64,000 nucleotides of DNA from an uncultured bacterium. GTDB taxonomy: Bacteria; Patescibacteriota; Minisyncoccia; UBA6257; GWB1-50-10. Positions 50,532 to 64,000 of this stretch are shown here, one piece after another. The stretch covers positions 216,420 to 280,419 of the forward strand of contig CAVYJB010000001.1 of NCBI GenBank assembly GCA_963768835.1. The letters are read 5' to 3'. The translations under genes were made by a program, and so were the position numbers. The number at the start of each line of letters is the position of its first letter. Within the stretch, counting starts at the first letter, position 1. Below the pieces are notes generated by a model, which was not told the DNA's origin, searched no databases, and saw nothing but the letters and a program-made list of their open reading frames with translations.

Positions 50532-52130
50532 TTATTCCCGCGAGCAGGATAGAATGCTTGAGAAGCGCCCGTAGCTCAACTGGATAGAGCATTTGCCTTC
50601 GAAGCAAAGGGTTCCAGGTTCGAGTCCTGGCGGGCGCACAAAGTGAGACGTTTCGCCGTCAAAGTCCCTGTTTAGCGAGAAGACAAGGGATAGTTCGGCG
50701 GTTCCAAATTTCCCGTCCGCAAAAGTTACTTTTTGCGGGAATACTAGGTTTTGGAACCTAACCTTGAGGGGGTACTTAAGCCGCCGCCACGTCTCGGATG
50801 AATTCCGGACGAACTGGAAGCAGTAATCGAGAGCCGCCTCCATGTTGAATTCCTCGATATGGTTTTCTCGCAAAAGGCGATGCTTCTCCGCAATTCGTTC
50901 GTTAATAATCGCTTTTTGTTCCGTAAATTCGTCGTCGGTGTATTTGCCCGCCCGGTGCAAATCAAACACCTTGAGCCGTTCCTGTTCTAGCTCTCCTATC
51001 TCCCGCCGGGTTCGTTCGCTAACCTCATTGAACTGCTTATAGTTCGTTTTCCATACGTCAAGGACCACAGCGCGAAATAGTTTTTCAAACCGCGCGGACG
51101 GGCTAATTTCCGTGAGATACTTGGCGAACTGGTCCTCAAACTCCTTTTGCGCGATGAACTTCGCCTCTGTGCATCCCTGAATATGGTGATGGTAATAGGC
51201 GTAGCGCTTGCCCTTGCGCCCCGTTGAGGTACTTCCTGTAAGCGCTCGCTTACACACGGGACAGTGAACGAAGCGCCGAAGGGGAAAGTCTGGGTTCGCT
51301 ACGTTGCGGACCAAAGGGCGCGCTCCGCCCTCGCGGACCAAGCGGCACTCCTCGAATACTTCTGGCGTCACTAAACTCTCGAACGTCCCATTGTTTCGTT
51401 CTCCAAATGCTTCAATGATGCCGCAATAGAGGGGGTTCTCTAGAACACGCTGAATAAACTGTTTCCTCGGTTTCTTGCCCGTCGTGGTCCGCAAACCGCG
51501 CTCAGCCATATACTCTGCTAACGATTCGTAACTGTGGGTTCCCTCGCGCCATTCGTCAAATATAAGCCGGTAAAGGTGCTTTGTTGCTTCAATGGGGGCG
51601 ATATTCGAGCCCTTTGCACCCCTTAGGGGCCGATAATAACCAGGTGGTTCTCTCCACTGCCAAATGCCCTTTCTAACATTTTCTAACATCCCGCTTTTAG
51701 AGCGCTCGGTACGCACGTTGTTATCGAACTCTGCAAAAACGGATAACATCCCCTCCATCGCCGCGCCTACTGGCGTGCTATCTATTGGTTCAGTTGTTGA
51801 GCAAAGCTCGGTGCCGTGTTTGTTGAGAATCGCACGGACCGTCGCGTGGTCATACTGCTTACGCGAGAAGCGGTCAATTTTGTAGACGATGAAATAATCT
51901 ACAGGGTGCCTTTTGTCCGAGCAAAACGCAATCGCTTTAAGGAATTCCGGTCTATTGGCGGTCTTCGCGGATTCTCCCCGATCCACAAACACCTTGAGTA
52001 ACTCGATACCGTTCCGGGCGGTGTACTCCCGAATGTTTTTCTCCTGCATTTCCAAGCTAGTGCCCTCCACTTGCTCTTTCGAGGAGACGCGGCAATACCC
52101 AATCCCAGTTTTCTTCTCTATGACGCTCAT
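50532..52130 (-). CDS. large serine recombinase (integrase); 3' end reads antisense through tRNA-Arg
   Basis: GYCRVSSKEQ catalytic Ser region, recombinase domain, zinc ribbon HCPVCKRALTG, coiled-coil; 532 aa. Confidence 0.85.
   Translation of the reverse strand: MSVIEKKTGIGYCRVSSKEQVEGTSLEMQEKNIREYTARNGIELLKVFVDRGESAKTANRPEFLKAIAFCSDKRHPVDYFIVYKIDRFSRKQYDHATVRAILNKHGTELCSTTEPIDSTPVGAAMEGMLSVFAEFDNNVRTERSKSGMLENVRKGIWQWREPPGYYRPLRGAKGSNIAPIEATKHLYRLIFDEWREGTHSYESLAEYMAERGLRTTTGKKPRKQFIQRVLENPLYCGIIEAFGERNNGTFESLVTPEVFEECRLVREGGARPLVRNVANPDFPLRRFVHCPVCKRALTGSTSTGRKGKRYAYYHHHIQGCTEAKFIAQKEFEDQFAKYLTEISPSARFEKLFRAVVLDVWKTNYKQFNEVSERTRREIGELEQERLKVFDLHRAGKYTDDEFTEQKAIINERIAEKHRLLRENHIEEFNMEAALDYCFQFVRNSSETWRRLKYPLKVRFQNLVFPQKVTFADGKFGTAELSLVFSLNRDFDGETSHFVRPPGLEPGTLCFEGKCSIQLSYGRFSSILSCSRE
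50565..50638 (+). tRNA. tRNA-Arg (anticodon TCG), no encoded CCA
   Basis: manual fold: acceptor GCGCCCG/CGGGCGC, D-arm GCTC-AACTGGATA-GAGC, anticodon arm TTTGC-CTTCGAA-GCAAA, T-arm CCAGG-TTCGAGT-CCTGG. Confidence 0.85.
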
Positions 52131-52414
52131 GGTGTAATTTTACCCTCGTCCTCTACACGATGTAAGCCCCAAGCGGGACTTTTGGAACCGCCCCCTATCC
52201 CTAAATATCCACCATTTTCCACCCAGTCATCGAACATAACACCCGCAAGCCCGTACAGTGCCCCCAATACGCGTTCCAATTCGTCGTCTGGGACGCTTTC
52301 TAGGCTTGGGTCTACCTTTCTAGCTTGGTCAACAGATAACATGGATTTCATAGGCACCCGCCAATCTACCAAAATCAACCATTTCCTACCGTTTACTACC
52401 GATAAAATCGGATG

Positions 52415-52855
52415 CTACATAACCTGCTCATCGGCCCATGTATGAGCCCTTTCACGCATATCTGTGATATTTTTTGCAACAAACATGAGAAACGCCGGAT
52501 TCTTAAAATAGCCGTTTAAGCCACCGACAATGACGACCTGTTTCTGTATCTCCTTGCACTCCCCGTAGGAGGCGGAAAACTCTTCATCTTGCTTTCTATA
52601 GCTCTCTAGGGTGTCAGCTGATACATTTATCGTCCGGGCAAAATCCCTAAAGAATGGAATCGCTTTCCGCTCGCTTAAATGATCGAGGCAATCCTCGAAA
52701 TAGCGGATCATTTCCTGTCCGAGCTCAGGCAAAGACTCTTTGGGGTAGGCGCGCGGCCTCCCTCCATTATTTCCAACTGCATATGTGTTTCCTTTTGGTG
52801 CTGGCATAAAAGAAAAACCCTCAAGAGAGGGCACAAAAACGCTTGCTTTGTGCAA
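52415..52855 (-). CDS. small-terminase-like DNA-binding protein (KGNxxAxGNxGGRP motif)
   Basis: probable start MPAPKGNTYAVGNNGGRPR at 52807; C-terminal FVAKN...W.DEQ resembles TerS tails. Confidence 0.5.
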   Translation of the reverse strand: MHKASVFVPSLEGFSFMPAPKGNTYAVGNNGGRPRAYPKESLPELGQEMIRYFEDCLDHLSERKAIPFFRDFARTINVSADTLESYRKQDEEFSASYGECKEIQKQVVIVGGLNGYFKNPAFLMFVAKNITDMRERAHTWADEQVM

Positions 52856-53244
52856 TCTCTTGAGGGTTTGCCACCGACAGCCTCTGCCGCTTACAAAAGT
52901 AAAGTTTTGTAAGGGCTAGGGAGGGCTCCCAACAGGCCAACTGCGGCTTTCGCCGCCGAGCTTGGGTTCATTTCCCTATGTTTTTCGTGTACCTCCTGTA
53001 ATGGTCAAGGCATTACACCTTCCATTAATGATTCTAGGTACCTTATCGCGCCCAACGTAATAGGTTTGGGAATTACGTTAAACTTGTCTCCGAAATGAGC
53101 TATCCAATCCTAGTACAAGTATAGCACGATTATTTGCGAAAATCAAATCGAGCTCGCCAAAAAATCGAGATTCCCTTAATTCTCTTATAAATTATATTAA
53201 AATATACCAATACTTCCGAATCTATGATTTCCCGGGTGTAAGTA

Positions 53245-55950
53245 TTAGAAAGCCCCATCAAATACCTTCTCGAATGCTGTTTCCTCATCGCGGTTGTAAA
53301 ACGGCAACCCTAAAACCCGATATTGATCCGTGTCTAATAGCGTCTTAACTAGACCTGCCACTTGAAGGTCTTTCAGAAAATTCTCTTTTGGCTTGTCCTC
53401 GGCCGACAAAAATTCACCTTTAGGCTCGATAAAAATCTGCCAAACACGATTTGCGCTCCGCTTACCGACTTTAGCTTTGCGTTGCACAAGACATAGAAGA
53501 TAGTCGGGCTGAAACGCTAGTCCTTCCTTAAAGGTGTAAAGCGTAATAACCCTCTCGTTTCGAATGAGATAAATCTCGCTGTAGCGCTTTTTTAATTTTT
53601 CAATGCGTCCATCGACAAATTTCACTAACCATTTTTCCTGATCTGTCCCAAAATCATCCTCATACACGTACCAATCACGCACATCAAGATTTAACCGCAG
53701 TGCTTGGTCTGTCGGCGGCACACGCACGCCATTCTTAGCCTCATATTCCCTACCGGACATAGAGCGTCCTCGCTCTTGTACTCCGGTCGGCATAGTCACC
53801 TGTATCTTTTTGTCGTTAATGAGCGTCGCTAGTTGTTGGGGTTTGAATTCCCTACTTCCGCGATATGTTGCTGTATGGGCAAGAATAGCGGTCTGTACTT
53901 CTCCTAAAATATGGACCAGTTGAATGAATACCTCGGAAGTCATCACCAAATCCCCGCCTTGCGGAATATGTATATCCACACGGATACGTCCGAGATATTT
54001 CGAGCCAGCAATAAATTCTTTGATGGAGGTGAGTTTGGGAAAATAGCGCCGGAGGTTGTCATAGTGGAAGAATGGCAACTTATCCATTGCTTTCCGTACA
54101 GCGTGCGCTGAGAGGTCGCCAAGCACCATACTAGTCGTCTTGTATTCGGGGTCCCTACCTCTGCCGTTCGTTTCGAATGCCGCTGTATCTCCGGAAAATC
54201 CCGATGCAACATGAATTTCAAGCGGCCTTCCTACCGCATCCGAAAATTTAGCAACCCCTATCCCAGTAGTTTCCTCCCGCGAATTCACAAAGACTCTTGC
54301 CCGACGGTAGAAGGGGGATTTTCGAAAATTACCCTTAAGCCGCAGGGGTAGTTCAACCGATTCATCAATCGCAAATCCTGTTTGTTTTAGAGCCTCTTTA
54401 AGTTCGCCAATATATCGGTGGTCCTCTTTGCTATGAAAATGCATCTGCTCCAGGGCCCGAAGCGGATTGCCTAAATCATTGTCGAACTTCCGTCGATCTA
54501 ACGGCTGACTGTCGTTCAATCGAAATGGCCAATATCGCGCTCCGCGCCCAATCAATTGAGCCTCGCGAATCGTGGCACGAATCCTACCCCTCTCGTCGTA
54601 AAGACGCACAATATCAAAGAGATTCAATACATCCCATCCCTCATTCAGAACCTCGACATCGAAAACTGCGCGAATTGGGTTGGTGGCATCTTCCAAATTT
54701 ACTAAGGTATTCAATAGTTTCGGATTGCGCCCAGTAATGGTGCCGTTAATAACCACACAGCGCTCGTGAGAAAACTCTGCCCTTAATATTCTCGCTAGCT
54801 GTGAATCAGAAATGTTGCTTTCTTCGTAAAACGTCAGGGCATCAAGCAGAATCCTGCTTTCAGATCGCCTCATCGCGATTTTCTTGAGCGCGGCAATATC
54901 TTTTGCTTCCAGGACATCAACCAATGCCCGGAATCGCTCGTAGTCATACTGTTGGGCATTAATGCGGTTAGATTTCAATAAAACCACGGGCTTAAGGGCT
55001 TTTTTGCGGCTTTCAGCAAGCTGTCGGCGGTATTCGGATATAACAAGTGCCTGGAGAATCCGCCCCTCAAGGCTTGCTTCTGAACGATGCAAAAACACAT
55101 CTTTTGAGTATCCGTCATTACGGAACTGTGGAAGGTCGTACTCAATAAGCACTCGTTCCGCATATTTCCGCGCGATGTTCTGATCGTTCCATCCAATGGT
55201 TGCTGTGAATTCTAGAAGCACGTTGTCCCGATGACTTTCAACAAGTTGTCGGATGGTCCATTCCCAAGAGGCCTCTAGCTCTCGTTCTTCCTGTTCACCG
55301 GCCCGAGTCAATGCATTAACGTGATGGGCCTCGTCAGAAATGAAAACCGTTTTCTCTCTTTTGAAGTCGTCCAAGGTAACGCTGTTTTCTTGAGAGTTGC
55401 GAATTCGGCTATGTAACCCGGCTAGCGTAGTGAAGATGATATTGATTGCATCAGGACTTCCAGATTCAAAGTTTTCTACCTCTCGAATCACAACCTCGTT
55501 CCCATGAATCACTACCGGGTCACGAAAAAGATATTTTGCGGATGATTTCTGTAAAAAATTATCCCTTGTTTTTAAGACAATGTTTGTCTTATCAACGAAA
55601 AATACAAAGTTACGGTAACCACGAGAATACAGATACAAAATCGCGCCCGCCATCACAACGGTCTTTCCACTGCCGGTCGCCATACTAAAGAGGAGTTCAG
55701 TGGGGCGTTTACGGTGGTCGTCCTTCTCAAGGTGGAAAACAAACCGAGAAAGAGCGGTTAGTTGGTACGGACGGAGGATGATCCCTGGCCGAAGATTTTC
55801 GGTAATGAGCCTCGGTATGGGGGTGACGCTACGCTCCTCAAGAACCTCATACCGCTGCGCTAGTCGTAGCGTGCTAGTGGTTGGCATAAAACGCTCGTGA
55901 ATGTTCTTTATCCTTTGCTGACACCTTGAATGTTGCGTCCTCCATGTCAC
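53245..55950 (-). CDS. res: Type III restriction endonuclease Res subunit (SF2 helicase-nuclease)
   Basis: helicase motif I ATGSGKT, DEAH box FISDEAHH, 901 aa, overlaps mod 3' end. Confidence 0.9.
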   Translation of the reverse strand: MTWRTQHSRCQQRIKNIHERFMPTTSTLRLAQRYEVLEERSVTPIPRLITENLRPGIILRPYQLTALSRFVFHLEKDDHRKRPTELLFSMATGSGKTVVMAGAILYLYSRGYRNFVFFVDKTNIVLKTRDNFLQKSSAKYLFRDPVVIHGNEVVIREVENFESGSPDAINIIFTTLAGLHSRIRNSQENSVTLDDFKREKTVFISDEAHHVNALTRAGEQEERELEASWEWTIRQLVESHRDNVLLEFTATIGWNDQNIARKYAERVLIEYDLPQFRNDGYSKDVFLHRSEASLEGRILQALVISEYRRQLAESRKKALKPVVLLKSNRINAQQYDYERFRALVDVLEAKDIAALKKIAMRRSESRILLDALTFYEESNISDSQLARILRAEFSHERCVVINGTITGRNPKLLNTLVNLEDATNPIRAVFDVEVLNEGWDVLNLFDIVRLYDERGRIRATIREAQLIGRGARYWPFRLNDSQPLDRRKFDNDLGNPLRALEQMHFHSKEDHRYIGELKEALKQTGFAIDESVELPLRLKGNFRKSPFYRRARVFVNSREETTGIGVAKFSDAVGRPLEIHVASGFSGDTAAFETNGRGRDPEYKTTSMVLGDLSAHAVRKAMDKLPFFHYDNLRRYFPKLTSIKEFIAGSKYLGRIRVDIHIPQGGDLVMTSEVFIQLVHILGEVQTAILAHTATYRGSREFKPQQLATLINDKKIQVTMPTGVQERGRSMSGREYEAKNGVRVPPTDQALRLNLDVRDWYVYEDDFGTDQEKWLVKFVDGRIEKLKKRYSEIYLIRNERVITLYTFKEGLAFQPDYLLCLVQRKAKVGKRSANRVWQIFIEPKGEFLSAEDKPKENFLKDLQVAGLVKTLLDTDQYRVLGLPFYNRDEETAFEKVFDGAF

Positions 55951-57673
55951 TGTAGTTCAGATATAGGTGGTTCATATCCAAACAATCAAGTAAGGCCTTT
56001 TTTTGGTGCAGGATGTCCAGCTTTTCAAACTTCTCTCTGCCGAACTTTTCCGGTCGCACAGGATAGCGGAAAAACGCTTCCTTCTGCATCTTTTTCCAAA
56101 TACTAAGTAAATCTTTTGTTGTTTTAGCATGTTCAATTTGTGTAACGTACCCAGCATTGAGTTGGTATAGTTCCATGTAAACAAAGCTACCACCTCCCCC
56201 CCAACCAACCTCCTGAGAAATTCCCGTCTGATCGCCCTTGATAATTTTTCTCAGTCTAGCGGTCGAATCGTTCTTGCTGTAATTGAGTTGCTCTATCCCG
56301 ATATAGCGACGTTTCATTTTGTGAGCTACCGCACAAGTCGTGCCACTGCCCAAATGATAATCCATCACTAAGTCGCCTTCGTTTGAGGCCATCTCTACAA
56401 TCCTTTTCAATAACTTTTCCGGCTTCTGAGTTAGAAATTCTTTGATTAGTTCAGTGTGATCTCTTTGGCTTTCTATGTAGGCTCGAGGATCTGCATAAAC
56501 TTGCCGAATATCAGTCCAAACAGTGGAAAGAGGGGTGCCCTTACTTTCATCAAGATACTGCTTAACCCAAATAGTCTTACCGTTTTTGTCGCGCCCGCGC
56601 ATTCTTTTTTGGTAACGCCTTCCATCCTCATCTACGTTTTTGAACCAGTCTTTTAGATACTTTTCTGAATACTCAATGTAGACCTTGTTTTGTTTTCGTT
56701 GAGTATAGTCTTTTGCATAATGCAGAATGTAATTGTGGATACCTACCGGCTTCGCTGTCGCGGCACGCCCACCGGAAGGTGAACCGTAGGACGAAACTAT
56801 CTCTTCAACAAAATTGTCTCTCCCAAAAACCTCATCGCACAGGACCTTGAGATAATGTGCTTCGTTGTCATCTATGTGAATAAAAATGTTTCCATCGCTC
56901 GATAAAAGATCACGAGCCACGCTTAGCCTATTCTTCATAAAAACCAACCAAGTAGAATGACTAAACTTGTCGTTGTACTTAAACTCATCCGAAGTGGTAT
57001 TAAAGGGTGGGTCTATGTATATCAGATTCACTTTTCCCCAGAAACGAGGCAAGAGCGAATATAGGGCCAAAAGATTATTGCCTCGAATGAGCAGGCTGTC
57101 ATTGGGACGAACGGTGTCAAGTGGCCACTTTCCTTTTTTATCAAAGCGCGTCCAGTTCGTGAGCACCTTCGGTTCGCGAAGTCGATCTACTTCGTCTGGC
57201 GCTAGTGTCGTGTTGTAAAAAATTTCCTCGCGCTTCTCGTCCGTTCTTTCCTGACCGCCCTCTAACACACAATCTTTATAGGGGAATGCTAGAACGACGT
57301 CGCGCGATTGCTTCAGTAAATCCCGGTCCGTCGTAGAAAGTCCAATATCGTTCCGAAATGCTGTGTACGAGCCGGGAAGAAAATCTGTCATTGCCACGAA
57401 GTCAATAAGTTTTTCTCGGAGCAGAACGGCTCCTACGCCAGGAACGGTTACAAAAAAATGTGCCCGTAAGACGGGCGCCGAGAATAACAACTTTACTAAT
57501 ATCGGATCAGCTCCGGCGGACAACTGTTCTAACTCCGTAATAAGCAACTGCGGCTTTTCGTCGTGGGACCACGATCGCTTATCTCTCCGCAGGACCGCAT
57601 CAAGAATAGCGCTTAGCTTCCCCCGTCCGCGACGACCACCGTCCTTCTTTTCCTCGTGTTTTTTGGTGGCCAT
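55874..57673 (-). CDS. mod: Type III DNA methyltransferase Mod subunit (N6-adenine)
   Basis: LIYIDPPF motif IV, SAM motif, 599 aa; 77-nt overlap with res typical of Type III systems. Confidence 0.9.
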   Translation of the reverse strand: MATKKHEEKKDGGRRGRGKLSAILDAVLRRDKRSWSHDEKPQLLITELEQLSAGADPILVKLLFSAPVLRAHFFVTVPGVGAVLLREKLIDFVAMTDFLPGSYTAFRNDIGLSTTDRDLLKQSRDVVLAFPYKDCVLEGGQERTDEKREEIFYNTTLAPDEVDRLREPKVLTNWTRFDKKGKWPLDTVRPNDSLLIRGNNLLALYSLLPRFWGKVNLIYIDPPFNTTSDEFKYNDKFSHSTWLVFMKNRLSVARDLLSSDGNIFIHIDDNEAHYLKVLCDEVFGRDNFVEEIVSSYGSPSGGRAATAKPVGIHNYILHYAKDYTQRKQNKVYIEYSEKYLKDWFKNVDEDGRRYQKRMRGRDKNGKTIWVKQYLDESKGTPLSTVWTDIRQVYADPRAYIESQRDHTELIKEFLTQKPEKLLKRIVEMASNEGDLVMDYHLGSGTTCAVAHKMKRRYIGIEQLNYSKNDSTARLRKIIKGDQTGISQEVGWGGGGSFVYMELYQLNAGYVTQIEHAKTTKDLLSIWKKMQKEAFFRYPVRPEKFGREKFEKLDILHQKKALLDCLDMNHLYLNYSDMEDATFKVSAKDKEHSRAFYANH

Positions 57674-57700
57674 GACTTATAAATCTTTAGCTCTTCATTG

Positions 57701-58141
57701 TTATTCTCTCAAGCTCTGCGGCCATATTATTTTCTGTACAATCCGGCGGGCAGGAATTACCCCCTCAATTCCGTGCTTCTTCGCAATTTCTAACGGGAGA
57801 TGGATAAGGATAGGAACAGGAAGTTGACGATCTGCTTCTGGGACCACAGCCTTATTCACGTAGTACCCGACCCGGTCAAGTATGTCCCGGCAGGCATTCA
57901 GTCTCACGCTCTCGCTCCGTGCCTTCTGCGAGAGGTGAAATACCATCGAGGCGACATCTCCCGCTCGTTCCTCCAAATACGCCCGAATGTTAGGTTTTGT
58001 TAGGTTCTCACTCCCCACAGAACGCGCTGTAGCCCTGTTCTGAGGCTTGTAGGCGCGGCTAGCGGCTTCTGTAGCGTTTCCCGTTTCAAGATAGGCGCTC
58101 GCAAATTTTCGCTGTTTTTTAGAGAGCCCCTCCATTTTCAA
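57701..58141 (-). CDS. terS: phage terminase small subunit (P27/Terminase_2 family)
   Basis: LSKKQRKFASAYLETGNATEAASRAY N-terminal signature. Confidence 0.8.
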   Translation of the reverse strand: MKMEGLSKKQRKFASAYLETGNATEAASRAYKPQNRATARSVGSENLTKPNIRAYLEERAGDVASMVFHLSQKARSESVRLNACRDILDRVGYYVNKAVVPEADRQLPVPILIHLPLEIAKKHGIEGVIPARRIVQKIIWPQSLRE

Positions 58142-58149
58142 GTTGTATT

Positions 58150-59261
58150 CTATTTGTCTTCAGCCCATTCAAACCTATCCTTGAGTCGGGCATATCTACT
58201 AAAAGGAATTTTTCCGAAGTGCTCAAGTCTGCCGATAACAATGCCCGTATCAATTTTTTCCTTCTCGGAGAATTTCTTTATGCATTCCATCGTATAGCAG
58301 TTGCCTTCTAGAAACTCATGAAAGTCTTTGCTTGGAATTAAGACCTCAGAAGCAAACTCGTTTGCCTTTAGCTCCTTCTCGCTTTTCTCATTAAGCCCAT
58401 TCTCAAAATCGATATTGAGCTCTCTTTTCCCATGAAGTAGGAGATGCCCTATCTCATGGAACAAACTTGAACCAAAATATATCGCATGACCGGTAGAGTA
58501 TACTCATTTGTATCATGGCTTTTTCTGGAGAAAGCCCACCTAGACACTCCATTGATGGGGGTGTTTTTTAGGCTCGGGGTTACAGTAAAGGCAACGCCAC
58601 ACTTCGATAAGATATTTTGGATCCCGTCTTGTATGGCCTTTGGTTTTTCAAGAATCAAGGCGCGGATTTGTGGTACGGCATCTCGAAGTTTTTCTGCATC
58701 GAATTTCTCTGTTGGAGCGCCCTGACAATCAACAATCCCTTTTCTCAGCCAAGCGGCCACAGATTGGGGAGATACCTTTCTTTTTTCAGACTTCCTGTAG
58801 AGTAAGGTGAGATCTCCCATTAACTCTCTCTTTACAACATCTTTTAAAGAAACGGCGCCGAAAAAGGAGCGAAGATTACCCACCATTTCAATCGAATCTC
58901 TTGTGGCAGGCACCCAATTCAGTTTCTCCATTTCAATATATGGGTAGGACGTTGAGATTTTTATCTCCTTACTCATAGCTTCTTGATCCCGAATTCTAGC
59001 TTTCACGTCCTGATAGTTAGATTCCAAGTTGTTCCAGACACCCGCGGGAATGCTCAAGACCTGTTCGAGTTGAATTACCGTCTCTGCAGTGATTGCTGTC
59101 TTGCCCTTTATAATTTCGTTTACCACTTGTAATGGCCGTTGCATTCTGCGGGCGAGATCGGCCTGGGTCATATTTCTTTCCTGAAGTGCCTCAAGTAAGG
59201 TTTCTCCCGGCGCTATCGGCAGTATTGGATAGTATGAAGTGAATTTTTTGAGCATGGTCAC
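58150..59261 (-). pseudogene. XRE-HTH / ImmA-IrrE metallopeptidase fusion (HigA-like antitoxin), frameshifted
   Basis: 58449..59261 carries HTH (MTQADLARRMQRPLQ) and peptidase N-part; 58150..58464 starts FHEIGHLLLH (HExxH); 16-nt overlap in different frames. Confidence 0.7.
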
Positions 59262-59605
59262 TTTTCCTTGTGGTAATTAATTTTTATCTCTGCGACTGAC
59301 AATGAGTCTATTTTATTCCAATCAACCCCCCCGTTCTCTTGAGTGTAAGTTCCAGGGTCGTTTTCAATATTAAAGATGATTCTGTCCGGCTCTACCAAAT
59401 GGACCCCAATTTGATGTTTCCTGTCATATTTTAACTCGTGCCACTTTCCTGGTGCATGCCGTAAATCAGCAAGGGTATTTGCGGAACGCGCTTGATCAAG
59501 TCGAAGAAAAATTTTCTTTGCCATAGGAACACCAAACGCTGCCTTGCATGTTCGGAGCGAAGTTAATTGGTGTCTGAGTTTCTGGGAAATAAAAACTTGC
59601 ATCAT
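59258..59605 (-). CDS. HigB-like (RelE/ParE superfamily) toxin
   Basis: PGKWHELKYDRKHQIGVHLVEPDRIIFNI matches the HigB killer-protein pattern; ATGA overlap with downstream antitoxin. Confidence 0.7.
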   Translation of the reverse strand: MMQVFISQKLRHQLTSLRTCKAAFGVPMAKKIFLRLDQARSANTLADLRHAPGKWHELKYDRKHQIGVHLVEPDRIIFNIENDPGTYTQENGGVDWNKIDSLSVAEIKINYHKEK

Positions 59606-60031
59606 TACTCAATTGGTGACTGATAGGTGGCCTAAGAATCGCTTTCTTAGCTTTGTCGGGTGAAAAGGCAATCATACTCATTATTATAGCATTCACCCTT
59701 TAGGTGAATACAATTGAAGCATATACGGCTCCGCTTTGCAAGAGCATACCTATACTGGTCGCTTCAAATCCCACTAGGCACTAATAGCCCCTGCCAGACC
59801 GACCTTTTTGGCTTCTCTTGCAAATAGCGCCCAATTATTCAACTCTAGTAGTATTGGGTTCCAACTTCGCATCACTTGGGGCACATGGTAGTGAGACCGA
59901 CCGAGGTGCGTCAATGCTGACGATTTCCGAGTCCGTCAAGGCGCACCCCGGAAGGACTCGAACCGAACCAAACGCTTTTTATCGGAAGGGTCGATAGGGG
60001 GTTCAGGTCTTGTTACCCGGATTTGAGCCCT

Positions 60032-61076
60032 TTATGTCCAGAACCAAATCTCGTTCTTGAGCCGCTCGCGGAGCGCATGGCCGTTCGCGTGCGAGAGCAC
60101 GCCAAGATACGACTGGAGCGATTGTTCGAGGCTTTGCATGCCGATGTCACCACGATGGTATTCCCGAATCCTTTCTCGGAACTTCTTGAATATCCGCCTC
60201 CTCGTTTTCGTGCGGACGAGACGGTGGTTCGGGAATACGTTGTATCCCAAGAAGTCCACCCCTTGATGCAGGGCGCGAATAGCAACCTTTTGCGGATGAA
60301 GCTCCAGCGAGAGCCGTTCCTTCAGAAAACGCGCAATCGGTGGTAGCATATCTTCCAGGTAGCCCTTGGTAGGAGAGACCACGACGAAATCGTCGGTATA
60401 TCGGAAGTAGTCCTTCACCCGCAGCTCGTGCTTCATAAAATGATCGAATTCGTGCATATATACGTTGGCGAAAAGCTGGGAGGTCAGATTGCCTATCGGC
60501 AATCCCTTGTGACTCTCTCTCTCTCGAGAGAGAGAGAGAGTAGCTCCCGACGATAGACTGGAGGAGCCACAGCGCGTTCTCGTCTGCTATCCTCCGTGCC
60601 AGGAGCGAGAGGAGGATTGCGTGATCCACGCTGTCGAAGAACTTCCGAATGTCACACTTGAGGACGAAGCACGGGCACGTGCCGTTCCTCCCGAGAGCCC
60701 GCGCACGTTCTTCAAGCCTCGCAACCCCCTTGTGGGTGCCGTAGCCCACGCGGCAGGAAAAGGAGGTCGGGATGAACGTTTCCTCGAAGATCGGGTTCAG
60801 GACCGCAACCACGGCGTGGTGCAGCACCCGGTCCCGCACCGTCGCTTTGTGGATGTGCCGCTGCTTCGGGTCGCGGATGTAGAAGCTTTGGTACGGGCCG
60901 TGCTGGTAGGTTTGGTTTTTCAGCTCGCGGTGGAGGCCGAAGATGTGCTCCTCAAGATGCCGCTCGAACCGCATGACATCGGGCTTATTCCGTTTTCCCC
61001 TCTTGAAGGAATCCCATGCTGAAAAGAGATTCTCCGGCGCGATGAGCCGGTCGAACAGGCCTCTATACACTTTCAT
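60032..61076 (-). pseudogene. DGR-type reverse transcriptase interrupted by a 28-nt palindromic insertion
   Basis: N-ORF 60147..61076 has RT motifs 1-3 (FVLKCDIRKFFDSVDH); C-ORF 60032..60502 has motif 4 LPIGNLTSQLFANVY (DGR-specific IGxxxSQ) and YTDDFVV; removing 60513..60540 restores frame. Confidence 0.85.
60513..60540. repeat. 28-nt (CT)6C/(GA)7G perfect palindrome inside the RT gene
   Basis: ctctctctctctc gagagagagagagag; exactly the length needed to explain the frame break. Confidence 0.9.
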
Positions 61077-61090
61077 GCTCTTATAAAGCC

Positions 61091-61441
61091 ATGGACGATT
61101 TCGACATCCCGATCTTCAAGAGAACCTACGACCTCTACAAAACCTTCTACGGGTACCGTGACGGCATCCAGAAGCAGGACCGCCACACCATCTGGCAGAA
61201 GTGCGAGAACATCATCCTCGAGATTCTCGAAGGGATACTCCTCGCGAGCCAGGCGTATAAATCCGAGAAGCTGCCGATCCTCGAGAGGGTCAGCGTGAAG
61301 CTGAATGTGCTGCGCGTCTTTCTCCGGCTGATGAAGGACGTCAAGATAATCGATAACAAGAAATACACGACCTTGGAGGGACTGGTGGACGAGATCGGAC
61401 GCATGCTCGGCGGGTGGATCAAGTCCTCGAGAGACCGATAA
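61091..61441 (+). CDS. avd: Avd-like accessory variability determinant (four-helix-bundle, 23S IVS protein family)
   Basis: 116 aa, IPIFKRTYDLYKTFYGY N-terminus typical of Avd/IVS proteins; located between RT and TR; divergent from RT with a 14-nt gap. Confidence 0.65.
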   Translation: MDDFDIPIFKRTYDLYKTFYGYRDGIQKQDRHTIWQKCENIILEILEGILLASQAYKSEKLPILERVSVKLNVLRVFLRLMKDVKIIDNKKYTTLEGLVDEIGRMLGGWIKSSRDR

Positions 61442-61487
61442 AAGAATGCCCCGCGTGGCGGGGCATTCAGCAATGGATGGAGGGGTG

Positions 61488-61607
61488 ACTGCCGGGCGGA
61501 GGCAAGACCGATGTTGTCGTTGCGGTTGTCGTCCCAGTTGTTGTTGACGTTCAAGCCGTCGGAATCGAAGTTGCCGACGTTGACCCGGTTGCCGTCCGAA
61601 TCCACAT
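61488..61607 (-). repeat. DGR template repeat (TR)
   Basis: 120 bp; differs from VR at 15 positions, all T on + strand (A on coding strand); coding-strand translation rich in AAC (Asn). Confidence 0.9.
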
Positions 61608-61962
61608 ATTGCCCGCTTCCGTCCGTGGCACCGGAGGTCGAGGGTTGCCGCTCAAAAGGAGCTTATATCCTCTCCCCCCTGAATTTCATTCGGGAGTAGC
61701 CCCTCCTGGGGCACCTCCACTAGAAGCGAGCAAGAAGTCCATCTCCATCCTTCGCCGCACGCTGCCGCAATCCGTGGACGGCGGCATTCTGGCGACATCT
61801 CAAAGGAGAGATATCTTGCGAGGCAAAGCCGTGACCGCGCCTGCATGAGCAAGATATGAAGAGTATAGCAAGCGGGCGTATGAAAAGAAATGAGCCTCCG
61901 GCGAAAATATCGCGCGGAGGCTCAAGGAATCAAGAGGGTCAAGCCCTCAAAGCTTCGAGGTT

Positions 61963-62739
61963 CTACCCGGACTTCCGGGCGGAGGCAAGACCGATGCTGT
62001 CGCCGCGGCCGCCGTCCCAGCCGCCGCTGACGTTCAAGCCGTCGGAACCGAAGCTGCCGACGATGACCCGGTAGCCGTCCGAATCCACATCCGAGGAGCG
62101 GACGTAGATCTTCTCGAAGAGCCGTTCGCCCGTCGCGAGGAAGTGGCCGATGATGGTGTAGACCATCACGCGTGCCGTGGGCACCTCCTCGTTCTTGCCG
62201 AGGAGCAGTTGCTGCTCGTCCCATGTCTTGCTCGTCGAGTTCTCGACCGGAGTCTTCCGCACAAGCTTCCATCCCATCTCTCCGCGATCCTTGGCGAAGG
62301 CCTGCTTGTTGTACCAATCCTGGCCATAGAACAGGCGCTGGCCGCTCGGGATTTTTCCGCCACGGATTTCGAGGATAGAGAGCGGGAAGACAACGACGAG
62401 AACGTGAGTGTCCTTGCAGCTCTCCAGCACGCCTTCCGTGAACGGGATCTCCGCGAGGGCGGCGAGTTGCTGCTTCGAGGGATTGAACCCGAAGTGCCCG
62501 ATCGCCTCCGCGACGCCGAAGAAGTTCTTGCCCATGATCTCGCAGGCACGCTTCTGACTCGTCGTCGGTTCGAAGCCACCGTTCTGGATCAGTCTCACCA
62601 CCTTCGTAGCGAGATCGTTCTCCTTCGAGATGATGACTTTCTGGGCGAGCTCGTCGGTGAGACCTGCGGCCTCGAGCTTCAGGAGCACTTCGTGTTCCTT
62701 ATGCACCGACAGGGTGCGGCTCATGATGGGTTCCATCAC
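61963..62739 (-). CDS. DGR target protein with C-terminal variable region (CLec-like ...GGWDGGRGDSIGLASA tail)
   Basis: 258 aa; AGGAGG RBS; VR encodes last ~40 aa. Confidence 0.8.
   Translation of the reverse strand: MMEPIMSRTLSVHKEHEVLLKLEAAGLTDELAQKVIISKENDLATKVVRLIQNGGFEPTTSQKRACEIMGKNFFGVAEAIGHFGFNPSKQQLAALAEIPFTEGVLESCKDTHVLVVVFPLSILEIRGGKIPSGQRLFYGQDWYNKQAFAKDRGEMGWKLVRKTPVENSTSKTWDEQQLLLGKNEEVPTARVMVYTIIGHFLATGERLFEKIYVRSSDVDSDGYRVIVGSFGSDGLNVSGGWDGGRGDSIGLASARKSG
61971..62090 (-). repeat. DGR variable repeat (VR) at the 3' end of the target gene
   Basis: 13 T-to-C and 2 T-to-A substitutions relative to TR (A-to-G/T on coding strand); palindrome cccggacttccggg at 61966..61979 at the VR end. 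Confidence 0.9.
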
Positions 62740-62808
62740 ATACCTCCTGTGGTTATAGATGACCGGAAATCTGTCCGGCGCAGTACCGCTTTTTCAAAGG
62801 GCAGTTAC

Positions 62809-62837
62809 ATTATACACTATAATATCGAGAATGTCAA
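62809..62837 (-). promoter_or_regulatory. consensus sigma70 promoter driving the DGR target gene
   Basis: minus strand reads TTGACA - 17 nt - TATAAT, about 65 nt upstream of the start codon. Confidence 0.7.
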
Positions 62838-63093
62838 ATCTAGCAGCAGGAGACCTGTTATGCTCAGCGGGCCGTCTTTCTAGGAGATTTTGACCTCCTT
62901 CTTCGCCATCGTGATCTTGCTCCGCAGGCAGGCCAAGAGTTCCCGCTTCTCAGGTATCGTCCCGTCCCGCAGGACGCATCAAATGGCACCAAGGAGTGGG
63001 GATCACCATTGCGCTCACCAGCGTGCTTATCCTTTTCGCTCTCACAGCACGATAACACACCACTTTTCAAACAGGATCGGATCGGTTATACAT

Positions 63094-63166
63094 AGGTAGA
63101 CATCCCCCCATAGCTCAATTGGTAGAGCTGCTCCCTCTTAAGGAGAAGGTTCTAGGTTCGAGTCCT
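63094..63166 (+). tRNA. tRNA-Lys (anticodon CTT), C1:G72, no encoded CCA
   Basis: manual fold: acceptor CCCCCCA/TGGGGGG, U8 A9, D-arm GCTC-AATTGGTA-GAGC, anticodon loop CTCTTAA, T-arm CTAGG-TTCGAGT-CCTAG; one G:A mismatch at 27:43. Confidence 0.75.
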
Positions 63167-64000
63167 AGTGGGGGGACCGAGATAGTCATGCGGCGCAGCA
63201 TTTTTGATCCAGCCCCCTTCCGAGGCTCCTTTTCTGTTTTTGGTCTCTTAATAGAGACTGCGGCAATCCCTATTTAATTGACACTGGGTTCTAGAGAGCG
63301 ATAGGATGGGAAAAGCAATTCAGTACCTTCCTAATTGAACAATCATGCGGAGGATCCCGTGCAAACTCGACCCAACAATGGGTTGCGCCAAGACGGAATC
63401 CTTGCGCAACTCTCGAAAGTAATCCGAGCAAATGGAGAACGGGTGCCACACTATCGAGGTGGCTATCTCTCTCTGCGCCAGATCAATGTCCTTGCGCAAC
63501 CCCGAAAAACGTTCGCGAATGTGCGCGAACTCGCAGATGATAATGCACAGAAAGGGCAGCTGCATCCGATCGTCGTTGCGCGATTCACCCGAAGCGGATG
63601 CGAACGATACCTCGCGCTCGTAAATGAGCTCTGGGGGACTTCATTCCGAATGTCCGACCTCGTCGTGAATCGGATGCGTCACGACGTGTTCTTCGATGTG
63701 CTCCTTGCCGGCGAACGGAGATACCGCGCGCTCTCGCTCCTCTGGAGGGAAGGGTGCTCGAAGTGCAGGGAAGAATACGGCCGCGAACTAAAGGGTCGAT
63801 GTTTCCGGAGGCATTTCGGCCGGCAGAATGATACGATCGAAGCCCGCATTTCGACGTCTATCATCCCTCTCCACGCGCTCTTCCTGCAACTCTCGGAAAA
63901 TACGCACATGGCGGTGCCTCCCCATGAAGAGGCACATGCGTATACTCTTCTTTTCCGGCTGATCCGACACGGGAATGCCGATTTCACACTCGCCGCATTC

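Follow-up and report, generated by a model that had tools for sequence, protein, structure and literature searches.

A dinucleotide-repeat tract breaks the reverse transcriptase frame of a Patescibacteria diversity-generating retroelement and may act as a phase-variable switch

The described systems closest to the one reported here are the diversity-generating retroelements (DGRs) of CPR/Patescibacteria, 90% of which, in the set of Wu et al. (2018, PMC5758913), share the B3 architecture TR-(avd)-RT, and which make up DGR clade 2, a clade with lower-than-average activity (Roux et al. 2021, PMC8144416). The locus that we describe lies in a 64-kb stretch of DNA (the whole of which is referred to as the window) and resembles these elements in its gene order and inverted avd, in being cellular rather than viral, and in having a target of ~255 aa without a recognisable sequence domain; it differs from them in the repeat tract and frameshift of its reverse transcriptase (RT) gene, neither of which is mentioned in PMC5758913 or PMC8144416. 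The prototype, the DGR of Bordetella phage BPP-1, has the order mtd-avd-TR-brt. In the window, by comparison, an inverted avd separates TR from RT, a terminator-like hairpin follows TR, which does not run on into RT, the element is chromosomal, and the RT, besides being out of frame, has 10 tract-coded aa inserted ahead of motif 4.

Two other kinds of genetic system bear on such a frame break. Contingency loci based on simple-sequence repeats (SSRs) are exemplified by the CT tracts in outer-membrane genes of Helicobacter pylori and by the type III mod genes of Haemophilus and Neisseria. Slipped-strand phase variation has been described for H. pylori sabA. The RT genes considered here are like these loci in possessing a perfect tandem repeat within the ORF whose unit length is not a multiple of 3, ON and OFF alleles that are otherwise intact, and one-unit polymorphism in near-identical strains, and unlike them in that the gene switched would be that of a diversity-generating enzyme, not of a surface or restriction-modification protein, and in that the hosts are CPR bacteria. 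Programmed frameshifting and transcriptional slippage, as in dnaX, prfB and IS elements, likewise join two overlapping frames into one essential protein, but in the loci described here the direction of the shift is not fixed, there is no heptameric slippery site, in-frame alleles occur and the tract measures 12-71 nt. In the literature on DGRs we found no report of an RT repeat tract, frameshift, phase variation, SSR or inverton, a prior description being nonetheless possible, and the literature searched yielded no report of phase variation in Patescibacteria/CPR.

The features of the locus, in window coordinates, are as follows.

60032..60511, minus strand: C-terminal part of RT (motif 4 PIGNLTSQ, motif 5 YTDDF, thumb), frame B; RVT_1 profile positions 119-205
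60512..60541, minus strand: dinucleotide-repeat palindrome A(CT)7CG(AG)6T inside the RT gene, the site of the frame break
60542..61076, minus strand: N-terminal part of RT (fingers, motifs 1-3), frame A; RVT_1 profile positions 8-102
61091..61441, plus strand: accessory gene avd, head to head with RT and on the strand opposite to RT, TR, VR and target
61444..61468, minus strand: intrinsic-terminator-like hairpin, 19 nt downstream of TR; 11-bp stem, then TTTTAT
61487..61607, minus strand: template repeat (TR), 121 bp, 30 adenines, 10 AAC codons
61963..62739, minus strand: target (variable protein) gene, 258 aa from GTG, with VR in its 3' end
61966..61979, minus strand: GC-rich hairpin at the VR 3' end, CCCGG-AAGT-CCGGG on the coding strand (plus strand cccgg-actt-ccggg)
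61970..62090, minus strand: variable repeat (VR), 87% identical to TR, coding for the C-terminal 40 aa of the target
62809..62837, minus strand: promoter-like site TTGACA-17-TATAAT upstream of the target, 12/12 consensus match

Collectively, the adenine-specific TR/VR pair, the position of VR at the 3' end of a gene for a CLec-fold target, the Avd and an RT of the DGR clade (whose motif 4 (I/L)GxxxSQ and YxDD are represented by PIGNLTSQ and YTDDF) identify this locus as a genuine chromosomal DGR of the CPR/Patescibacteria type. The initial annotation of this DNA had recognised the DGR signature, and its TR/VR pair, VR placement, Avd and RT relationship each passed a test of their own; it had also called the element complete, a description that fails in the assembled sequence, where the RT frame is broken at the dinucleotide palindrome. 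An origin from a phage was considered as well and was dropped because the combination of tract and PIGNLTSQ had 0 matches in viral contigs.

TR and VR are direct repeats separated by 483 bp, and they differ at 16 of 121 bp. Fifteen of the differences are at TR adenines of the coding strand, 13 of them A>G and 2 A>T, which agrees with the 13 T>C and 2 T>A changes first listed for the plus strand; the hypergeometric chance that all 15 would fall on A, given 30 A in 121 nt, is 2.9e-11. The earlier count of exactly 15 differences in 120 bp (61488..61607 and 61971..62090), each at a TR adenine, was correct for the adenine sites, but 16 differences lie inside those limits and the one at 61491 (plus strand G/T; coding strand C in TR, A in VR) is not at an adenine. 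Mismatches beyond TR adenines, which the initial annotation had named as grounds for rejecting a DGR, consist of this single exception, located at the terminal IMH/IMH* position, 4 nt short of the repeat's 3' end. The frame of TR is Asn-rich (...GNRVNVGNFDSDGLNVNNNWDDNRNDN...), the AAC codons having been pointed out from the start, and every adenine-site change in VR is non-synonymous (N to Y, I, S or G; D to G). At the level of sequence, the TR/VR pattern shows VR to have been rewritten at TR adenines by mutagenic homing. Apart from VR, the 64-kb window contains no TR-like copy, and neither a second VR nor a remote target was found there.

Near the 3' end of TR, a GC-rich stretch of 22 nt (61492-61513) is the same in TR and VR and may be an IMH/IMH*-like element. 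The palindrome that had been reported at the VR end was located at 61966-61979, overlapping the final codons of the target; its 5-bp stem and 4-nt loop are present in both the MFE and the centroid DNA folds, and the 61-nt fold around it is no better than that of shuffled sequences (z -0.2). The corresponding TR sequence reads CCCGGCAGTCACCC, in which pairing is impossible, and a comparable VR hairpin is found in 21/57 relatives. By analogy with the Bordetella DGR, the hairpin might have a role in target recognition.

The ORF at 61963-62739 on the minus strand bears out the initial proposal that VR codes for the C-terminal 40 aa of a 258-aa protein; read from an ATG at 62736, the product has 257 aa and is identical to a database protein (P0121). 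The TTGACA-17-TATAAT site is the only perfect one within 59600-63300, and its match to the consensus suggests that it functions as a promoter. The target sequence had no match in Pfam, NCBIfam, PADLOC or among PDB sequences. AlphaFold2 returned a pLDDT of 37 for the target with 35 close homologs, and a diverse alignment of 95 sequences was needed, with which the protein was modelled confidently. The check for a CLec/FGE fold proposed in the initial annotation came out positively: the modelled C-terminal domain matches FGE/C-type-lectin folds, including those of the DGR variable proteins TvpA, Mtd and TaqVP, and the variable residues are predicted to be displayed on the C-type-lectin fold. A Foldseek search of the target model against the PDB returned nothing significant.

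The Avd-like ORF that had been seen to adjoin RT lies on the plus strand and passes the cut-offs of both NCBIfam (NF033474 DivGenRetAVD, 84.4 bits, cut-off 80) and Pfam (bAvd PF22296, 72.4 bits, cut-off 40). Its start is 14 bp from that of RT (61076), and its inverted position is shared by 103/114 Avd matches in related loci. A look-up with avd also retrieved a second assembly of run ERR11594402 (Logan contig L204). The order on the minus strand is promoter-like site, target with VR, a 355-nt spacer, TR and terminator-like hairpin, beyond which come avd (plus strand) and then RT (minus strand); avd between TR and RT on the reverse strand is the B3 TR-(avd)-RT arrangement. The predicted RNA fold of TR and its flank (-68.1 kcal/mol, z -3.1) contains the terminator-like hairpin, and a comparable hairpin followed by a T-run comes after TR in 24/57 relatives. 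Rfam models detected only a tRNA-Lys in 59300-64000.

The initial annotation had placed an RT with IGNLTSQ and YTDDFVV next to these elements. Both motifs are present, but they do not belong to one gene: the RT is divided between two minus-strand ORFs (61076->60147 and 60502->60032) that overlap at the 60512-60541 tract, frame B being shifted +1 nt from frame A, and the window locus contains no intact translatable RT ORF. Neither of the RT ORFs corresponded to a called gene in exact-product look-ups. The N-terminal part aligns with 349-aa homologs up to ...IVGSY, and the frame would be restored by +2, -1 or -4 nt; one extra dinucleotide restores an RT of 348 aa, the gain of one AG/CT unit giving a perfect 32-nt palindrome and ...IVGSYSLSLSRERESHKGLPIGNLTSQ..., and the loss of two repeat units likewise restores the frame. 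Thousands of CPR RTs of ~349 aa, named ones from Parcubacteria, Minisyncoccia and Moranbacteria among them, share 60-67% identity with the repaired 348-aa RT. The closest solved relative of that RT is 8ub7_A (E 1e-46, with group II intron RTs at 2e-25), which we take to be the Bordetella phage bRT and against which the tract-coded loop before motif 4 appears as the 10-aa insertion. The tract itself has perfect 14-nt arms and a predicted DNA hairpin of -13.4 kcal/mol (z -3.2); its (CT)7 and (AG)6 are the only dinucleotide runs of at least 6 units in the window, and Logan contig L204 is 100% identical across it.

We regard the frameshift as the more interesting feature of the locus because the tract is a recurrent one in the RT family and most genes that carry it are out of frame. 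Metagenomes were searched with a frame-blind DNA pattern, with at least 120 matches, none of them in viral contigs; frame counts were taken over loci with both anchors, an (AG)n of at least 12 nt being scored as a tract. The RT loop before motif 4 is of low complexity and variable in length among homologs, and tracts of this kind occupy it in 91 loci, 69 of them out of frame (39 phase +1, 30 phase +2) and 22 in frame, as against 0/44 out of frame for loci with a short or absent tract. The perfect (AG)n runs of the relatives are 12-71 nt long. GTDB genomes have (AG)n runs of 10-71 nt at the identical site, and the only shifted loci among them (L060, L061 and L075) all have runs of at least 23 nt (Fisher p=0.001 for tract versus shift). 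Dinucleotide runs number 89 at the RT site versus 3 elsewhere in 831 kb of loci. In a phylogeny of 53 RTs, the 11 tract-bearers are accounted for by 9 parsimony changes, and the non-CPR outgroup is without the tract. Of the 91 tract-bearing loci, the window alone has the (CT)7 arm that creates a palindrome. One further locus, L139, was rejected as a case of tandem tract duplication, being an NN-joined scaffold, and was left out.

Natural variation in repeat number is found among alleles of relatives that are otherwise the same. Tract length is polymorphic in only one of three multi-member clusters, and in it L084 and L115 (18-nt tract, OFF) differ from L105 (20-nt tract, ON), over ~3 kb from target to RT, only by 19 VR substitutions and an AG indel; L084 and L105 share the same TR and the same ~3 kb of flanks, their VRs being distinct at 19 sites. 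The coding sequences of ON and OFF alleles are otherwise intact and under selection. Among shifted genes the N-terminal part is open in 51/52 and the C-terminal part in 50/52, and dN/dS between pairs of OFF loci is 0.08-0.13 for the N-terminal part and 0.06-0.19 for the C-terminal part downstream of the shift. TR/VR mismatches are at A in 93.3% of cases for OFF loci, 91.8% for ON loci and 93.8% for tract-less loci.

The reading that we consider probable is that a slipped-strand contingency tract gates the expression of RT and that the copy in the window is OFF (phase +1). The repeat sits in a loop just before motif 4 that tolerates insertions. When units are gained or lost, the downstream two-fifths of RT (motifs 4-7 and thumb) passes from one to another of three frames, and the full-length enzyme results from a single one of them. 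The frame changes with each unit because the unit is 2 nt, and the tract never makes a stop because (AG)n is (Arg-Glu)n in all three frames. Slipped-strand mispairing would presumably alter the length of the tract often and reversibly, so that production of RT, and hence hypermutation of the target, would be phase-variable, ON cells diversifying VR and OFF cells holding it fixed. The mutability of the window tract itself may be modest, its (CT)7 and (AG)6 being short in comparison with the tracts of many relatives. We infer that the tract has an adaptive role, and we lean slightly towards the wider proposal that hypermutation is phase-variable in many CPR bacteria through an evolved, frame-neutral (AG)n gate that is OFF in most cells and populations. 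OFF alleles may leak some RT through slips of +/-2 nt on the tract.

The strongest of the competing explanations, although we think it unlikely, is that the polymerase or the ribosome slips on (AG)n, in which case the DNA frame would be irrelevant and a low, tuned fraction of full-length RT would be made. A shift of +2 or -2 nt would re-pair perfectly on AGAGA, and the tract, being (RE)n throughout, is stop-free in every frame. The near-random distribution of frame states (17, 34 and 26 of 77), in which the in-frame state is not enriched and, at 17/77, is mildly depleted (binomial p=0.04 versus one third), fits a gate that is mostly OFF and fits equally a frame that is irrelevant because decoding slips; strong purifying selection downstream of the tract in lineages with an OFF consensus, and TR/VR pairs as fresh in OFF as in ON loci, would also be expected of such recoding. 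Known programmed frameshifts, however, fix one direction, whereas both shift classes coexist here with in-frame alleles (39, 30 and 22 loci), and there is neither a canonical slippery heptamer (X_XXY_YYZ) nor a conserved stimulator. Elongation slippage on dinucleotide tracts is, moreover, not established, the word "dinucleotide" not occurring in the text searched of a review on frameshifting, and the ON/OFF allele pair represents a change in the length of the DNA itself. Recoding could coexist with phase variation as a source of leakiness.

It is very improbable that the frame break is an error of sequencing or assembly, i.e. that the RT of the window is truly in frame and that the length called for its 30-nt hairpin repeat is one unit off. 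Polymerases are prone to errors on hairpins and on dinucleotide repeats, and the window and contig L204 derive from one run and are not independent sequencing, but the tract is far below the read length and two assemblers agree on it exactly. The break recurs, in both phases, in 69 other loci from many projects, identical OFF lengths have been obtained from separate samples (30 nt in L098 and L155, 17 nt in L118 and L135), and none of the 44 tract-less loci is shifted. We give equally little credence to the idea of a dead element, in which a chance microsatellite in an unconstrained loop killed the RT and left a decaying relic. The assembled sequence does give no full-length RT, the loop is of low complexity and differs in length from homolog to homolog, and the CPR clade has been assigned below-average activity (Roux et al. 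2021, PMC8144416). Against decay, the RT halves carry no other lesion in the window or in 50-51/52 of the shifted relatives, comparisons between OFF lineages give a dN/dS of 0.06-0.19 for the part that follows the shift, TR and VR of the window differ at no non-A site other than the terminal IMH position, OFF loci are as A-specific as ON loci, and a single unit change, of which the natural allele pair is an example, restores the frame. Separate translation of the RT halves, the second being re-initiated close to the I/L codon of G(I/L)PIGN, and their assembly into an active enzyme can be dismissed almost entirely: the purine-rich tract and an AAGGG just before the TTG at 60502 look like a ribosome-binding site, but the spacing to that TTG is poor, the relatives share no conserved start codon, in-frame single-chain alleles exist, and no RT divided between motifs 3 and 4 is known to us.

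The repeat has consequences for how these elements are counted and used. Surveys that rely on an unbroken RT ORF (DGRscan-, myDGR- or HMM-based) will split or miss a sizeable share of CPR DGRs or score them as pseudogenes, and the missed split RTs may contribute to the "lower activity" reported for the CPR clade. Tract-bearing RTs provide experimenters with an ON/OFF pair found in nature and suggest a design for targeted mutagenesis that can be switched. A repeat-length switch in RT would regulate DGR activity in a simple, heritable and reversible way. A stochastic switch placed on top of a hypermutator would amount to a second layer of bet-hedging, by which a lineage might diversify its CLec-fold target at some times and lock in a variant at others, and it would testify to contingency loci in CPR/Patescibacteria, whose conventional regulators are few.

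All parts of a DGR are present at this locus, and the frame of its reverse transcriptase (RT) gene is broken exactly within a dinucleotide repeat. We regard the identification as a DGR as virtually certain. Except for avd, all of its parts lie on the minus strand.

Parts of the DGR cassette and its RT gene
Upstream of the target gene, minus strand: putative promoter TTGACA-17-TATAAT, a perfect match to consensus
61963-62739, minus strand: target gene, an ORF of 258 aa whose last 40 residues are encoded by the variable repeat (VR)
61970-62090, minus strand: VR, a direct repeat of 121 bp, 87% identical to the template repeat (TR)
61966-61979, minus strand: VR-specific hairpin CCCGG-AAGT-CCGGG, overlapping the final target codons
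61487-61607, minus strand: TR, a direct repeat of 121 bp, 87% identical to VR
61468 to 61444, minus strand: strong terminator-like hairpin, 19 nt after TR
61091-61441, plus strand: accessory gene avd, 84.4 bits against an NCBIfam cut-off of 80
61076 to 60147, minus strand: RT N-terminal ORF (RVT_1 positions 8-102), whose genuine RT part stops at ...IVGSY
60512-60541, minus strand: 30-nt palindrome A(CT)7CG(AG)6T (coding strand), at the junction of the two RT ORFs
60502 to 60032, minus strand: RT C-terminal ORF, from PIGNLTSQ (RVT_1 positions 119-205)

TR and VR differ at 16 positions. At 15 of these the coding strand of TR has an adenine (13 A>G and 2 A>T); the probability of all 15 falling on A by chance is 2.9e-11 (30 A in 121 nt). 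The adenine-only pattern claimed in the initial annotation holds for all but one difference, at 61491, where TR has C and VR has A; this site is 4 nt short of the 3' end, where divergence between IMH and IMH* is expected. TR contains ten AAC codons, and the changes from TR to VR are all non-synonymous. The TR counterpart of the VR hairpin is unable to pair, the RNA of TR and its flank folds well (z -3.1), and the 64-kb window holds no further TR-like copy or target paralog. Two contigs, L203 and L204, of the independent Logan assembly of the same sequencing run (ERR11594402) end inside the TR/VR repeat (at window positions 61573 and 61598), an illustration of how short-read assemblies break up DGR cassettes.

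The target ORF bears out the assignment of VR to the C-terminal 40 residues of a 258-aa protein. Its family is very large and domain-less, with 1210 homologs at E<=1e-5 and 3097 clusters at 50% identity, and its variability concentrates at the AAC-templated positions. The CLec/FGE fold previously raised as a candidate is borne out by fold comparison, with matches to TvpA (7.7), Mtd (6.5) and TaqVP (5.5), all variable proteins of DGRs, and to many canonical CTLDs at about 5. Sequence methods gave no match for the target.

The Avd-like ORF noticed earlier is confirmed by its NCBIfam score. Its start is separated from that of RT (61076) by 14 bp, head to head, as in ~100 relatives with gaps of mostly 0-20 bp; the avd arrangement is common to 103 of the 114 Avd matches among related loci. 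Given this spacing, either the avd promoter sits within RT and the RT promoter within avd, or the TR transcript extends into RT, possibly by transcription past the post-TR terminator. The cassette matches architecture B3, "TR-(avd)-RT", which accounts for 90% of CPR DGRs (Wu et al. 2018, PMC5758913), as well as DGR clade 2, a CPR-restricted, cellular group of below-average activity with targets lacking known domains (Roux et al. 2021, PMC8144416). As a DGR, the element is an ordinary one of the CPR type.

The DGR adjoins a low-GC island (50532-59605; ~45% as against 56-60% GC) whose content resembles that of a mobile element integrated here, or of what remains of a prophage.

Features of the low-GC island
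Within 50532-59605: large serine recombinase, abutting tRNA-Arg (50565-50639)
53245-55950: type III restriction gene
55874-57673: type III methylase gene
57701-58141: Terminase_2-like ORF
58150-59261: M78 peptidase and HTH pair

On the other side lies a tRNA-Lys (63104-63178). A 19-nt inverted copy (84% complementary) of its T-arm/acceptor 3' end (63155-63173) occurs just downstream of RT, at 59946-59964, where neither ARAGORN nor Rfam calls a tRNA; the two sites, one on each side of the DGR, may be what is left of an old attachment site. Downstream of tRNA-Lys, at 63380-63502, the sequence TGCGCCAAGAC...CCTTGCGCAAC recurs in both direct and inverted orientation (families D3 and I8), the copies lying 90 nt apart.

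The initial annotation, largely right overall, had called the DGR complete; the parts are all there, but the RT consists of two ORFs in different frames, the C-terminal one displaced by +1 nt, and the label needs correcting. The palindrome at their junction, the only place in the window with dinucleotide runs of at least 6 units, forms a 13-bp hairpin as DNA (-13.4 kcal/mol, z -3.2). Addition of one AG or CT unit, or loss of 1 or 4 nt, restores an RT of 348 aa. Thousands of RTs of ~349 aa, of which those with a named source come from Patescibacteria, match it from end to end at 60-67% identity. The nearest solved structure is 8ub7_A (E 1e-46), which we take to be bRT of the Bordetella phage; compared with this structure, the tract encodes a 10-residue insertion, SLSLSRERES, directly before G(I/L)PIGxLTSQ.

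Several homologs carry RERE... runs at exactly this loop in the protein alignment. Among 80 species-representative GTDB loci found with an RT profile, nine have (AG)n runs of 10-71 nt at the site, and the only frame-shifted loci (L060, L061 and L075) each have a run of at least 23 nt (Fisher p=0.001 for tract versus shift); in L061 and L075, stops in both frames closely flank the tract. A frame-blind DNA pattern, (GA)6-N{5,35}-PIGNLTSQ codons, matched at least 120 metagenome contigs and no viral contigs. For loci with both anchors (LKCD..FF and PIGNLTSQ) among the GTDB loci and metagenome matches listed, 91 carry a tract of 12 nt or longer. The frame is lost in 69 of them (76%), with 39 loci in phase +1 and 30 in phase +2, as against 0 of 44 with no or a short tract. 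Once identical copies are removed, 17 of the metagenome matches listed keep the frame, 34 are in phase +1 and 26 are in phase +2, an in-frame share mildly below one third (p=0.04).

The tract is site-specific, with 89 dinucleotide runs at the RT loop and 3 elsewhere in 831 kb of loci. Its 11 carriers, out of 53 taxa, are dispersed over the RT tree and require 9 parsimony changes; the non-CPR outgroup lacks it. In 89 of the 91 loci it begins directly after C, giving C(GA)n, and in 33 TAA or TAG follows next, so that one OFF (out-of-frame) phase terminates right at the tract end; the (CT)7 arm is found in the window only. In in-frame alleles the tract is translated into (Arg-Glu)n, with as many as about 17 dipeptides in a row, and such a stretch might form a single alpha-helix. 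One scaffold (L139, 590-779) joins two different RT fragments by NN exactly at (GA)n tracts, so the tracts are also scaffolding or assembly break points.

A natural pair of alleles comes from different metagenomes: the tract measures 18 nt in L084 and L115 (OFF) and 20 nt in L105 (ON, in frame), with 200-nt flanks 100% identical. Over ~3 kb, from the target gene through RT, they differ only by 19 VR substitutions and by one AG unit (2 nt) of the tract, with no change in TR, avd or the remaining RT. Within the cassette, VR has therefore been rewritten, and the tract has slipped, faster than any ordinary substitution has arisen. Upstream of the target, at the L105 contig end, L084 1541-1950 and L105 1-400 show 54 substitutions in ~400 nt, a divergence that is not TR-related and may mark either the edge of a recombined stretch or a hypervariable segment. 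Two other clusters each show an OFF length of their own that is repeated in separate samples, and more distant relatives (85-90% identical) have tracts of 71 versus 35 nt, and of 18, 22 and 14 nt.

Recurrence, length polymorphism, intactness and purifying selection are family-wide, and the tract is very probably a hypermutable, length-variable site that toggles the RT frame. Slipped-strand mispairing would cycle it from ON, by gain of one unit, to phase +2, then to phase +1 and back to ON; the phase would set RT synthesis and hence make mutagenic homing phase-variable, the window copy being OFF and one unit away from ON. Whichever frame is used, (AG)n is translated as (Arg-Glu)n and so never adds a stop, and in-frame changes of length do no more than extend a surface loop. 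We lean towards the reading that the tract works as a functional phase-variation switch and is not circumvented by recoding. The chief competing reading is that OFF alleles are nonetheless decoded, through +/-2-nt slips of the ribosome or RNA polymerase; the near-random distribution of frames fits such slips as well as phase variation, and the two are not mutually exclusive.

Shifted RT genes are not decaying, and the view of them as dead relics is disfavoured. Of the 52 shifted loci whose contig spans the gene from end to end, 51 have an N-part open over 137 codons or more, and 50 a C-part open over 131 codons or more. For related lineage pairs that are both OFF, dN/dS is 0.08-0.13 in the N-part and 0.06-0.19 in the C-part past the shift. 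The share of TR/VR mismatches located at A is 93.3% in OFF, 91.8% in ON and 93.8% in tract-less loci, and 22 of 29 OFF loci show no more than one mismatch outside A. An enzyme split into two chains is likewise disfavoured, as is a sequencing error at the window tract, across which L204, from a second assembly of the same run, is 100% identical.

Neither PMC5758913, PMC8144416 nor full-text literature searches mention a repeat switch in the RT, Paul et al. 2017 lying outside that scope. The overlooked frameshift points to a family-wide simple-sequence switch in DGR RTs, apparently undescribed.
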